Source: a bacterium
GTDB taxonomy: Bacteria; UBA10199; JADFYH01
Assembly: GCA_046346885.1 (NCBI GenBank)
Contig: JAXMHI010000002.1
Span: forward strand, 216,768 to 280,767
Direction: 5' to 3'
Length of the DNA: 64,000 bases
Part shown: positions 26,822-42,097 of the stretch, in pieces
Numbering within the stretch: the first letter of the stretch is position 1
Layout of the letters: each line of letters opens with the position of its first letter
The notes under the pieces: generated by a model
Database searches by the model: none
What the model saw: the letters and a program-made list of their open reading frames with translations, nothing else
What the model was told of the DNA's origin: nothing
Made by a program: the position numbers and the translations under genes

Positions 26822-26850
26822 GCAACTTTCGGGAGTTCTTTTTGCGATAA
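26822..26850 (+). promoter_or_regulatory. sigma-28-geometry promoter candidate (site A)
   Basis: GCAACTT-N15-GCGATAA, 47 nt upstream of ATG 26898. Shares -35 and -10 elements at identical spacing with sites at 29029, 34871, 40138 and 42056. Confidence 0.45.
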
Positions 26851-26897
26851 TAGGGTTGGAGGCGCAGTTTTAAGAGCCCCTTTAGGAGGATAGTTTT

Positions 26898-27479
26898 ATG
26901 GCAGATACAGTGATTAACGATACTTCAGCCCCTCAAATTGATGCTCGTGAGTTCGCTCGATCGGGAGAACGGGGTGCCATCAGCACGGGGCCCGGTAAGT
27001 TTGCGCAGCTTGTCGATGGACTTTTACCCGTAGCCCAAACGGCCAACCAATTATGGGGAAAACCCGTGATTGCGGCGGCCATGACGGTTCTGCCCGGTAG
27101 CGGTGGTCAAATGGCCGGTGCTTCTTCCCCCATGGGAGGCGGCGTTTTTGGCAGCGGCGGTGGCGGTGTTTTCGGTCGTTCTTCCATCACCGGACCTGGC
27201 GGTAGCACTGGCGGCGGTGGCGGAGTTCCTTTCGGTCCTCCCCCGGCTCCCCCGAGTGTGGGTGGCGGTTCTTCTGTGTCTTCCGCAGGCGGCATCCCCG
27301 GCATGGGGGGCGGCGCGGATTATCAGACCCAATTGGACAGCATGTTCAATAACAACATGATGTTCCTCATGTTGCAGACGAAAGTGCAGAACATGAGCCA
27401 ACAGATCCAGCTGACCTCGAACACCATCAAGGCGAAGGACGACGCGATCGCCAACACGATCCGTAACTTCCGCAGCTGA
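26898..27479 (+). CDS. needle-subunit-like (SctF-like) protein with long N-terminal and Gly-rich extension
   Basis: C-terminus MFLMLQTKVQNMSQQIQLTSNTIKAKDDAIANTIRNFRS resembles PrgI/MxiH ...YRNAQSNTVKVFKDIDAAIIQNFR. Central GGGVFGSGGGGVFG...GGSTGGGGGVPFGPPPAPP region. Good RBS (AGGAGG). Confidence 0.6.
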   Translation: MADTVINDTSAPQIDAREFARSGERGAISTGPGKFAQLVDGLLPVAQTANQLWGKPVIAAAMTVLPGSGGQMAGASSPMGGGVFGSGGGGVFGRSSITGPGGSTGGGGGVPFGPPPAPPSVGGGSSVSSAGGIPGMGGGADYQTQLDSMFNNNMMFLMLQTKVQNMSQQIQLTSNTIKAKDDAIANTIRNFRS

Positions 27480-27506
27480 TTTTTACTTAAGGTTAGAATT
27501 AAAAAA

Positions 27507-27537
27507 GAGGGTAGCAAATTTGCTACCCTTTTTTTTC
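27507..27537 (+). terminator. rho-independent terminator after the needle-like gene
   Basis: gagggtagca / tgctaccctt stem followed by T8. Confidence 0.75.
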
Positions 27538-27568
27538 GCCATCAGTTATTTTCATAAGATAAACCGAA

Positions 27569-28009
27569 ATGGAGGAGGTGGCGGATATGATTGATGTTCC
27601 AACCGAGGATCTGCGTTTGATGTTAGAGGCGGGATACCTTTATATCGCCATGAGGCGGTTTAAGGAAGCCCGTGAAGTGTTTGAAGGAATCTGCGTTTTA
27701 GCCCCTGAAAGCGACGTGCCTCTGGTTGCCTTGGGCAACGTGTCTTTCGTGGAAAGCAAGTTCGACGAGGCCATTAAAACCTATAAAAAAGCTCTCGATT
27801 TGGTCCCCAGCAGCGCTTTTGCGAAGGCCTATTTGGGCGAGGCCCTTTTCTTCAGCGATAAGAATGAAGAAGCCATGCAAACCTTACAAGAAGCTTCAAA
27901 AATGGATCCTCACGGAAAATCCGGGGAATTTGCCCGTTCTCTTCTCGAGCTGATTCGTAAGGGATTTGATCCGAAACCCGAAGAGAAAAATTCTAAAAAA
28001 ACCAAGTAA
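27569..28009 (+). CDS. TPR chaperone (T3SS class II / YscG-like)
   Basis: 146 aa; LMLEAGYLYIAMRRFKEAREVFEGICVLAPESDVPLVALGNVSFVESKFDEAIKTYKKALDL: three TPR-like units, immediately after the needle-like gene. Confidence 0.6.
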   Translation: MEEVADMIDVPTEDLRLMLEAGYLYIAMRRFKEAREVFEGICVLAPESDVPLVALGNVSFVESKFDEAIKTYKKALDLVPSSAFAKAYLGEALFFSDKNEEAMQTLQEASKMDPHGKSGEFARSLLELIRKGFDPKPEEKNSKKTK

Positions 28010-28043
28010 AATAGGCTTAAAAGCCGTAGGATTTTTCCATCTC

Positions 28044-39956: not shown

Positions 39957-40137
39957 TCCTGCTTTTTATCAATCATTTGGTTTCAGGTCTTAATCAGCTA
40001 TTACAGCCGAATCATCGATTATTTCGCTAGAGAGCCTTTTCCATTCCCCCTTGAAGCTCTCTAAAAAAAGTTACTTAAAATAAATAGGTTAGAGGAAAAT
40101 GCTGTTTTTCGAAAAGAAATCATTTGCCTTTTTGGAA

Positions 40138-40166
40138 GCAACTTAAGAGGATTATAATTCCGATAA
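40138..40166 (+). promoter_or_regulatory. sigma-28-geometry promoter candidate (site B)
   Basis: GCAACTT-N15-CCGATAA in the AT-rich 370-nt spacer after sctT, 159 nt upstream of ATG 40326. The extended match GAAGCAACTT is shared with site A, and CCGATAAACAC with site C. Confidence 0.45.
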
Positions 40167-40325
40167 ACACATGAAAACGAAATACCCCTAAAGGGGATTA
40201 CTTTAAGGAGAAATACGCGACGACGATCAACGAAATAGTACGAAAACAAAAATCCCCCTGTTGATGATCAAAACAATACCTGAAATACCAATAACGACTC
40301 GGTCAATGAGGGTGATGACGATGTC

Positions 40326-41275
40326 ATGACGGAGCTGGACTTAACAGTGAAGGCACTCAGGCAATACGTCTACTCCCAGCCAGATCAAGGCTCTTCCTCC
40401 CCAACAACGACAAGCCTTTTGCTCCAAGCGGCGTTGCAAAATCAGCAGTTTGGGATGGATGAGCTTTCGTTCAAATTGAACGGGCAATTGTATGGCTGTT
40501 TTCAATTCCCGAAGACGTCGTTTCGACCTTAGGCGGAGAACAAGCCTATAAAACCATGTCGCCAGGGCAACATGCTTGGCCCTCAACAGTCTCTACGGTG
40601 CGATCCCTATAACAACCCCATGGGCGGCAGCGGAAACGGTCGTTCCTCCATCACGGCGCCGTCTCCTTACGGTGATCCTTACGGCGGCGGTTATGGCGGC
40701 GGCGGTTGCGAATGATGGTTACGGCGGGTATGGCTACAACGGCATGAACCAGAACCAGCTTTCGTGGATCAGATGGAGCGGGCGCCAGCAACGCGACGGC
40801 ATCAACACCGCGCGTAGCCAGATCCGCAAGTACGAACAAGAGATGAAAGTGAAGATGAGCGCAGATCATGTTCATGATCCTCATGGGAGACGTGCCCGGC
40901 GCCATGCGAAATATCTTCGCTCAACGGAAAATCCTGAACTGCTTACACCAACCGAACTCAGTGCAGAAAGCTCGATGCGCGCCGCGAAGTCGAAAATTCT
41001 TGATGGCGATGGCCGCAAGCGCCCTCCTACGGCGCATGACAACACGAACGATCCCGCCGGAGCCGCGCGCGACCAGAACAAGCAGGCCAAGTACACCCAA
41101 TGGGTCTCCGTGACGACCCAGTTGATGAGCGAAGTGCAACAGACGGAACGTGAATTGCTGGATCTTCTTGAGCGAAGGTCGACGCAAACAGTCAACGACC
41201 TTTGGCTTCCGGCAGCGGTTCAAAGAGGCCGAGGCGAGAACCACGAGAACGGTCATCCAGGCCTTCCGCGGTTAA
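40326..41275 (+). pseudogene. Gly/Tyr-rich protein with needle-like C-terminus, multiply frameshifted
   Basis: Fragments across frames: MTELDLTVKALRQYVY.., YDPYNNPMGGSGNG..SPYGDPYGGGYGGGG, DGYGGYGYNGMNQNQ, AKYTQWVSVTTQLMSEVQQTERELLDLL, and the final frame KEAEARTTRTVIQAFRG with stop at 41273-41275. Confidence 0.45.
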
Positions 41276-41317
41276 TCCGAAGAAGGGCCCAAGGTGTGTT
41301 GGGAAGATTTCCCAAAA

Positions 41318-41351
41318 GCGGCTTAACCAAAAGGGGAAGCCGCTTTTTTTT
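41318..41351 (+). terminator. rho-independent terminator
   Basis: gcggctt / aagccgc stem with 12-nt loop followed by T8. Confidence 0.7.
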
Positions 41352-41455
41352 GGTTGTGCGGATAGGCTTCGCTCCTTTTCCAAAACCTCTTGCGACCCTC
41401 TGGGTTGAAGTGATAGCATAACACCTGTATATCACTCAGAATTCGGAGATTTTTC

Positions 41456-42097
41456 ATGGCCACACAAGACGCATTCGATCCCAATGCCGGTTTAACCGCC
41501 GAACAATTGGCGCAAGAGCGCAAGATCGAGGAAGAGGAACAGAAAAAAAATCCCGAACTTTGGAAAAAAAATAACGCCTGGCTCGAGCAAATGATCGGGC
41601 TCCTCAAGAACATCAAGCCAGAAGAAGTGGAGGCGATGAACGCGAAGTTCGAGAAGTTCATCGAGGGAGAGGTTACCTGGGCCGAGTTGCAGGGGGTCCC
41701 TCCCAAATTGCTTTTCGAAATCTCCGAGCACGGCTACCTGCAGTTTCAGCGTGGAAGATTCAAGGAAGCGGAAACCATCTTCAAGGGCCTTTCCACCCTC
41801 GACCATAAAAACGCCTATTATCACTCCGTATTGGGTGCCATTTACCAAAAACAAGACCGTTTGGGGGACGCCCTCGCCGAATACACCGTCGCGGTCGAAA
41901 TGAACCCCAAAGACATCGCTTCTTTCGTCAACCGGGGGGAGATTTATTATCGCTTAGGCGGCGTAGAGGAGCCGCTGGAAGACTTTAATGCGGCCATTGC
42001 CTTAGATCCCCAGGCTAAAAATCCCTGGGCAAACCGGGCGCGGTTCCTAAAAAACGCAATTCTTCAGGAGGAAGAAGCCGATAAGAATAGAAAATAG
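41456..42097 (+). CDS. T3SS class II chaperone (LcrH/SycD/CesD-type TPR) with N-terminal extension
   Basis: LQGVPPKLLFEISEHGYLQFQRGRFKEAETIFKGLSTLDHKNAYYHSVLGAIYQKQDRLGDALAEYTVAVEMNPKDIASFVNRGEIYYRLG matches the LcrH/SycD pattern. Confidence 0.75.
   Translation: MATQDAFDPNAGLTAEQLAQERKIEEEEQKKNPELWKKNNAWLEQMIGLLKNIKPEEVEAMNAKFEKFIEGEVTWAELQGVPPKLLFEISEHGYLQFQRGRFKEAETIFKGLSTLDHKNAYYHSVLGAIYQKQDRLGDALAEYTVAVEMNPKDIASFVNRGEIYYRLGGVEEPLEDFNAAIALDPQAKNPWANRARFLKNAILQEEEADKNRK
42056..42084 (+). promoter_or_regulatory. sigma-28-geometry promoter candidate (site E), inside the 3' end of the chaperone gene
   Basis: GCAATTC-N15-CCGATAA (preceding G gives GCCGATAA), 32 nt upstream of ATG 42117. Same register as sites A and B. 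Confidence 0.35.

Follow-up and report, generated by a model that had tools for sequence, protein, structure and literature searches.

The last class of flagellar genes is transcribed with the alternative sigma factor σ28, and in Vibrio, Pseudomonas and Campylobacter this stage is preceded by σ54; σ28-type promoters and σ54-then-σ28 hierarchies are both textbook features of flagella. Control of injectisomes, on the other hand, has been described for AraC-type regulators, extracytoplasmic function (ECF) sigma factors such as HrpL and BtrS, or σ54. HrpL is expressed from a σ54 promoter with HrpR/S and recognizes the hrp box GGAACC-N15/16-CCACNNA, while Bordetella BtrS is paired with a secreted anti-sigma factor, BtrA, and flagellar σ28 with FlgM, the export of which releases the late genes. 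To our knowledge, dedicated σ28-type control of a non-flagellar type III secretion system (T3SS) has not been described, and searches of the full-text literature returned neither an account of a FliA/WhiG-like sigma factor embedded in a non-flagellar T3SS or of the promoter variant reported here, nor any account of T3SS in UBA10199, nor a relevant paper on a T3SS with a sigma factor in UBA10199 or Acidobacteria. For the Myxococcales, an “ancestral” non-flagellar T3SS without SctF and FliG has been reported (Abby and Rocha 2012, PMC3459982), in a text in which “sigma” occurs 0 times. Here we analyse a stretch of 64,000 nucleotides (nt) from a bacterium of the UBA10199 lineage (contig JAXMHI010000002.1, positions 216,768 to 280,767; hereafter the window), which carries a flagellum-like, apparently non-flagellar T3SS cluster, and a bipartite motif, G[C/A]AACTT-N15-sCGATAA (core AAC-N18-CGATAA), found in front of several of its genes. 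This motif is very probably a promoter for the RNA polymerase holoenzyme with the sigma factor of the same cluster, and the set of sites appears to form a σ28-type regulon dedicated to the T3SS.

Five + strand sites (A to E, Table 1) had been proposed in a first-pass annotation of this DNA, and all five were tested, with coordinates taken from the whole window. Their sequences were found exactly where they had been placed, and the distances given to the next open reading frame (ORF) were right as well (47 nt for A, 25 for C, 15 for D, 159 for B and 32 for E). The strict core MAAC-N18-CGATAA matches the window only at A (26823), C (29030) and B (40139), that is three times against 0.31 expected, a number reached in 0/100 shuffles. 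With one mismatch permitted, the degenerate pattern covering all five sites gave 5 matches against 0.82 expected, a count of reduced weight because the pattern came from the sites themselves. A weight matrix was built exclusively from 19 orthologous sites of other genomes, and the window was then scanned with it. Sites B, C, A and E had the highest scores (Table 1), followed by a match of 13.3 bits, while the best score per random window (n=200) was 13.1 bits on average and 23.4 bits at the highest, with 17.7 bits as the 95th percentile. The hexamer CGATAA is present in 5/5 window sites, preceded by C in four and by G in one, and in 18 of the 19 matrix sites, the exception being site C of one relative (L090), which reads CGATAT. 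The heptamer CCGATAA is less exclusive than had been claimed: instead of four + strand copies, all of them at the sites, there are 6, those at 50433 and 53786 being without a -35 box, and the - strand holds 2 more.

Syntenic loci were obtained via sigma-factor and gene E homologs, with approximately 20 kb per relative. The closest genomes are metagenome-assembled genomes (MAGs) labelled Deltaproteobacteria or UBA10199, and a metagenome scan with the product of gene E, of 408 amino acids (aa), found no relatives. Gene order is the same in the syntenic loci, the sigma factors of which are 68-88% identical to that of the window, and the motif was found at the orthologous A, C and B positions in every locus covering them (8-12 syntenic loci): in eight relatives for site A, in 8/8 for site C and in ten for site B. 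When seven site-A intergenic regions were aligned, AACT and CGATAAT were the sole invariant blocks, the spacer and flanks varying freely. In one relative (L093) the gene B module is detached from the T3SS core genes (fliR/sctT), and the motif is still in front of it. Counts of MAAC-Nk-CGATAA for k=12 to 22 gave 25 sites at k=18 and 0-3 at other spacers in the clade of the window, 60 sites at k=16 and 3-9 at other spacers in 34 Acidobacteria/Eisenbacteria T3SS loci, and a flat distribution (1-8 per spacer) in 41 other T3SS or flagellar loci. Such a single, sharply preferred spacer per lineage is as predicted for a sigma-factor promoter. No site above 20 bits was found in 76 control loci around T3SS or flagellar ATPases from other lineages.

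The units behind these sites are short. Units A and B comprise a single gene each between the motif and a hairpin followed by a T-run, located for unit A at 27508-27535, 3′ of gene A, which makes it a one-gene unit, and closing unit B at approximately 41316-41350; unit C consists of gene C and the gene for a 124-aa protein. At site B the 159 nt are correct as the distance to the ORF, but not as a leader, since gene B is broken in the window and the distance is thus an artefact; a Shine-Dalgarno sequence lies approximately 40 nt past the -10 box, as in the relatives. Taken together, the data support A, B and C as a putative σ28-type promoter set for the cluster-encoded sigma factor, in front of probable secreted substrates.

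The published FliA/σ28 consensus is TAAAGTTT-N11-GCCGATAA (PMC7286023). The motif agrees with it in its -10 element GCCGATAA, and the statement of the first-pass annotation that the -10 box is of the σ28 type is borne out, the CGATAA core being identical to the consensus. The -35 box, G(C/A)AACTT(T) or GMAACTTT, takes the place of TAAAGTTT: AAnTTT is common to both, while the TAAA of TAAA(GTTT) is absent. The geometry had also been equated with a TAAA-N15 consensus, which does not hold, given that the best alignment (AACTTT on AAGTTT) leaves N13, a spacer 2 nt longer than the canonical N11. An intermediate form was observed in the acidobacterial T3SS loci with a homologous sigma factor (L005-L039 for Acidobacteria/Eisenbacteria; examples at L024 1038 and L017 15690), where the motif is nAAACTTT-N11-GCCGATAA and departs from the consensus mainly by a change of G to C. 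Its copies in these loci stand before gene A homologs and before many 600-740-aa proteins that carry no annotation, the leaders being 40-100 nt long, and the latter proteins are candidate substrates. The series from canonical σ28 through the acidobacterial form to GMAACTTT-N13-sCGATAA places the window motif within the σ28 promoter type; on this comparison it is a predicted σ28-type promoter with an altered -35 box and two added spacer bases.

The proposed reader of the motif is the FliA/WhiG-related sigma factor of the cluster. In NCBIfam its four best matches are the WhiG, FliA/WhiG and FliA models, the SigB/F/G model coming next with 90 bits. Its residues 30-248 are covered end to end in the alignment to the structure of WhiG (6pfj) and its residues 28-251 in that to FliA (6pmi), an end-to-end alignment being likewise obtained with FliA 9wsf and 1rp3, and its GWIPRS motif corresponds to DW(I/A)PRS of WhiG/FliA. 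As in group 3 factors, the protein consists of regions 2, 3 and 4 and is without region 1.1. The helix of region 4.2 is the part that reads the -35 box in sigma-70-family factors; here it is SKSWTSRLH, as compared with SESRVSQ(L/I)H in WhiG and FliA. Among 120 homologs with 63-91% identity this helix, LSKSWTSRLHARAL, does not vary, and SKSWxSRLH is also found in most of the homologs from Acidobacteria and Eisenbacteria, the overall identity of which is 32-39%. The motif and the clade of sigma factors with the SKSW helix share lineages across phyla. Both the -35 box and the protein part that reads it have changed, while the -10 box has been kept, which points to this sigma factor as the reader of the motif, as a correlation rather than a proof.

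Several observations weigh against this assignment. The sigma factor stays under the cut-offs of both the WhiG and the FliA_WhiG model of NCBIfam, scoring 139.7 bits with the latter (TIGR02479) against a curated 189.6. No Pfam or NCBIfam match to a FlgM-like anti-sigma factor was obtained for the 97-aa, 124-aa and 163-aa proteins of the cluster, FlgM being poorly detectable by sequence searches. Sites D and E are unconserved among the relatives, and with the frameshifts at 37300-41300 (see below) this genome may have a defective system, or a poor assembly at that place. Finally, an AAC in the -35 box is also typical of ECF promoters. The motif might accordingly be an ECF-type promoter read by an ECF sigma factor encoded elsewhere, the cluster sigma factor having another role. 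G(A/C)AAC does resemble ECF -35 boxes, AAC is likewise present in the GGAACC at the start of the hrp box, which is recognized by an ECF sigma factor controlling T3SS genes, HrpL, and the acidobacterial AAC-N16-CG spacing is typical of ECF promoters; in the clade of the window, however, the AAC-to-CG distance is 18 nt, as opposed to 16-17 for the ECF type, and the -10 box is CGATAA(T), the σ28 signature, and not CGT(C/A). Neither the cluster of the window nor that of any relative encodes an ECF sigma factor, whereas the FliA/WhiG-like one is always present and co-occurs with the motif by lineage; its alignment to WhiG and FliA extends through region 3, so that it is not an ECF sigma factor. For these reasons we consider an ECF promoter very unlikely.

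The boxes could also be the site of a DNA-binding activator or repressor, with the true promoters being of the σ70 type, given that sites of T3SS regulators (the PIP and tts boxes, for example) are also bipartite with a fixed spacer. Here, however, the two boxes are not direct or inverted repeats of each other, the downstream one is identical to the σ28 -10 box, and they lie 25-85 nt 5′ of start codons, where no further promoter can be recognised, matches in a σ70-like scan being no commoner than in shuffled sequence and none of them falling at the motif sites. As the σ54 activator is moreover the only transcription factor conserved in the cluster, a regulator site is very improbable, and we retain the reading of the motif as a promoter of the cluster sigma factor.

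Sites D and E call for a separate assessment, as the first-pass annotation had treated all five sites as one regulon. In favor of equal membership, the match to GCCGATAA is perfect in D, as is that to CCGATAA in E, and both are located just 5′ of cluster genes on the coding strand. In addition, one relative (L001, 4160-4213) has an extra motif copy 21 nt 5′ of its homolog of the 163-aa (SctI-like) gene, right after the sigma gene, so that regulon membership does differ between lineages. Nevertheless, when the two blocks alone were scored with the spacer fixed, D reached 15.2 bits, approximately the mean best score of a random window, and over all scorings it ranged from 9.9 to 15.4 bits, within noise. 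Its AAC is changed to ACC, or else its spacer is 19 nt, a length never found in the clade. The site is placed between the ATPase gene and sctO, where the window has a longer spacer of its own, and no counterpart occurs in the relatives. Being only 15 nt from the ATG, a start 7-9 nt downstream would land inside the Shine-Dalgarno sequence. Site D is therefore rejected as a promoter of the regulon and is probably a chance match, which fits the ~0.8 chance matches expected for the degenerate pattern. Site E scored 19.9 bits on the blocks alone, which 3.7% of random windows attain (p ~0.04 per window). It overlaps the final codons of the LcrH/SycD-like chaperone gene and carries AAT where the orthologous sites carry AAC in 19/19 cases, and no counterpart was found in five relatives (L091-L095), in which the C-terminus of the chaperone differs. 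Its high matrix score set against these features leaves the prospects evenly balanced that E is a lineage-specific promoter, and five sites working as equals seems unlikely. The idea of a sigma-28 regulon hence stands for A, B and C, which are conserved and accompanied by a sigma factor with WhiG/FliA models as best matches, fails for D, and applies to E at most as an imperfect, lineage-specific member.

Other candidate sites were rejected. A TAAA-N15-ACCGATTA at 32562 had rightly been set aside before; it falls within the final codons of the fliG-like gene and is unconserved in relatives. A site at 2442 (+), inside rmuC, has CGATAC and one additional spacer base, and a site at 18537 (+) scores about as high as random maxima; both are probably due to chance. 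In three relatives GC(A/G)CAAC-N18-GCGATAA was observed within the 3′ end of fliH/sctL, just 5′ of the ATPase gene (L081 13069-13098, L085 13407-13436, L002 9895-9924); its score is 16.4 bits in L002 and, in L081 and L085, less than the 12 bits required for listing. These matches may represent a weak internal promoter or merely conserved coding sequence; the window is without a counterpart, there being no + strand CGATA between 31003 and 34894.

Table 1. Motif sites, promoters and genes of the T3SS cluster in the window (scores of sites are from the weight matrix).
Feature	Position	Strand	Description
SctV	~19032-20948	+	hrcV model score above FlhA models
FHA-PEGA-TPR protein	24156-26411	+	
97-aa protein	26517-26810	+	conserved, lysine-rich, no family match
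Site A	26822-26850	+	GCAACTT-N15-GCGATAA; putative promoter of gene A; 27.3 bits
Gene A	26898-27479	+	glycine-rich product
Small TPR protein	27569-28009	+	
SctJ-type lipoprotein	27966-28988	+	
Site C	29029-29057	+	GAAACTT-N15-CCGATAA; putative promoter of gene C and the 124-aa gene; 27.3 bits
Gene C	29083-29583	+	166 aa
124-aa protein	29604-29978	+	
Conserved box TTGTTCTTTGAAA	~25 nt 5′ of the σ54 promoter (region 30104-30156)		in most relatives
σ54-type promoter TGGCATgtatgCTGCA	30141-30156	+	TGGCAT-N5-CTGCA; 64 nt 5′ of the sigma gene
Sigma factor	30220-31008	+	262 aa; FliA/WhiG-related; Pfam regions 2 and 4; proposed reader of the motif
163-aa protein	31040-31531	+	faint SctI-domain match (19.2 vs 23.45 bits)
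FliG-like protein	31633-32589	+	Pfam FliG_M and FliG_C above gathering threshold
FliH/SctL, ATPase, YscO/FliJ, FliK-like, FliM-like	32704-37309	+	
Site D	34871-34899	+	GAACCTT-N15-CCGATAA before sctO; probably a chance match; 9.9 bits
FliN, FliO, FliP, FliQ, FliR	37300-40025	+	in pieces
Site B	40138-40166	+	GCAACTT-N15-CCGATAA; putative promoter of gene B; 30.9 bits
Gene B	~40200-41270	+	in pieces; ~345 aa in relatives
LcrH/SycD-like chaperone	41456-42097	+	73.9 bits, below cut-off
Site E	42056-42084	+	GCAATTC-N15-CCGATAA; possible internal promoter for gene E; 26.0 bits
Gene E	42117-43343	+	408 aa
Second TPR protein	43380-44090	+	
FHA-domain σ54 activator	44087-45493	-	Pfam domains; candidate for the switch that acts upstream on the sigma gene
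Ser/Thr kinase with PEGA domains	45611-48127	-	Pfam domains; adjoins the σ54 activator

The gene behind site A is probably that of the needle subunit. Its product ends in SNTIKAKDDAIANTIRNFRS, which resembles the C-terminus of needle subunits; in BLASTP of this end against PrgI, 12/33 positions up to the C-terminus were identical (E = 7e-4 for a single comparison), while hidden Markov model and PDB searches gave no needle family. The order of the 97-aa gene, gene A, the TPR gene and sctJ is similar to yscE-F-G...J. The 97-aa protein, encoded immediately upstream of site A, is 52-76% identical in relatives (23% in the most distant one) and could be a needle chaperone, in a YscE-like position, or a regulator. 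The location of gene E after the LcrH/SycD-like chaperone suggests a translocator-like substrate, and genes B and C received no family assignment. It is reasonable to infer from this gene context that the targets of the motif are late secreted substrates; the earlier description of the downstream genes as mostly secreted substrates can be kept as probable for A, B and C, not as demonstrated.

The sigma gene itself is without the GMAACTTT/CGATAA motif and is preceded by a σ54-type promoter, which is kept as TGGCAY-N5-MTGCA in eight relatives. In the window alone, a scan with the σ54 consensus gave 19 matches against 21 expected, which is not significant, and the support for the site at 30141 thus comes solely via its conservation in relatives. 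A strong terminator (31551-31587) follows the pair formed by the sigma gene and the 163-aa gene. The neighboring genes for the FHA-domain σ54 activator and the Ser/Thr kinase are syntenic in three relatives (L091, L092 and L095), and two more FHA proteins are encoded at 21635-22720 and 24156-26411. The presence of FHA proteins and a kinase suggests that phospho-threonine signalling feeds the T3SS cascade.

In the cascade proposed here, the σ54 promoter would turn on the sigma gene, most likely through the neighboring FHA-domain activator, which may in turn be controlled by the adjacent kinase. The sigma factor would then transcribe unit A with the probable needle subunit, unit C with the 166-aa and 124-aa proteins and unit B with the ~345-aa protein, and possibly unit E with the 408-aa protein downstream of the chaperone. 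The structural operons, from the fliG-like gene through sctT, are without the motif. From sequence we infer that the sigma factor binds the motif, where transcription would start, that the products are secreted and that an anti-sigma factor may couple the regulon to secretion.

Such a cascade would mirror the flagellar hierarchy of Vibrio, Pseudomonas and Campylobacter, in which the sigma gene is found behind a σ54 promoter as it is here. With σ28 class 3 flagellar promoters the motif shares the -10 core CGATAA and an A/T-rich AAnTTT in the -35 box, and it is similarly followed by short units, comparable to those for exported axial and late proteins like fliC. The differences from class 3 control by FliA, SigD or WhiG are the altered -35 box, the two additional spacer nucleotides (the spacer is canonical in the acidobacterial cousins), the different region 4.2 helix, the fact that the targets belong to a non-flagellar T3SS and the failure to find FlgM. 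HrpL offers a parallel as an alternative sigma factor dedicated to a T3SS, driven by σ54 and with AAC in its -35 box; however, it belongs to group 4 (ECF), uses the -10 box CCACNNA and drives the whole hrp/hrc cluster plus effectors, as opposed to a subset of units here. The promoters in front of likely substrates suggest a logic similar to that of BtrS/BtrA and σ28/FlgM, although those systems have an anti-sigma factor, for which only candidates are available here (the 124-aa, 97-aa and 163-aa proteins).

The gene content of the cluster mixes flagellar and injectisome features. SctJ-, SctV-, SctR- and SctN-type models gave the best or near-best matches for cluster proteins, and flagellar-type components (FliG-like, FliM-like, FliO) are also present, the FliG-like protein being encoded where Ysc-type clusters have sctK. 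No secretin was found among the window ORFs scanned. The system shares with the Myxococcales non-flagellar T3SS the lack of a secretin in sight, the occurrence in free-living, delta-proteobacteria-like lineages and flagellum-like features, but differs from it by the presence of a needle-like gene, a FliG-like gene and FliO. It therefore looks like a hybrid of flagellum and injectisome, unlike the Myxococcales systems of 2012. Between 37300 and 41300, FliN, FliP, FliQ, FliR and gene B are each spread over two or three frames, the match to FliO is partial, and near 40218 the start codon of gene B has apparently become ACG in place of ATG. The genes flanking this region are intact, as are the same genes in all relatives, and the frameshifts reflect either a local MAG assembly or polishing error or a real decay of the export gate. 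Towards the end of the window (58000-64000) the GC content falls from ~0.55 to 0.33-0.38 and the genes are on the - strand; this may be a foreign or island-like region.

A broader proposal can be put forward tentatively: that the σ28-like sigma factors with the SKSWxSRLH helix form a distinct clade which is a fixed part of a flagellum-like T3SS without secretin, present in three phyla or more (UBA10199-type “Deltaproteobacteria”, Acidobacteriota and Eisenbacteria), and that this non-flagellar machine has kept the flagellar class 3 checkpoint. An exported anti-sigma factor would then hold the sigma factor until the basal body is complete, the 124-aa, 97-aa and 163-aa proteins being candidates for that role. 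If this is true, the passage from flagellum to injectisome would have left a regulatory “living fossil” in the form of this checkpoint. For this family of T3SSs, which is uncultured and spans several phyla, the compact and conserved promoter offers a direct route to the prediction of secreted substrates and effectors. It also implies that, besides the structural parts, the regulatory logic may be a flagellar inheritance, which makes the transition testable.

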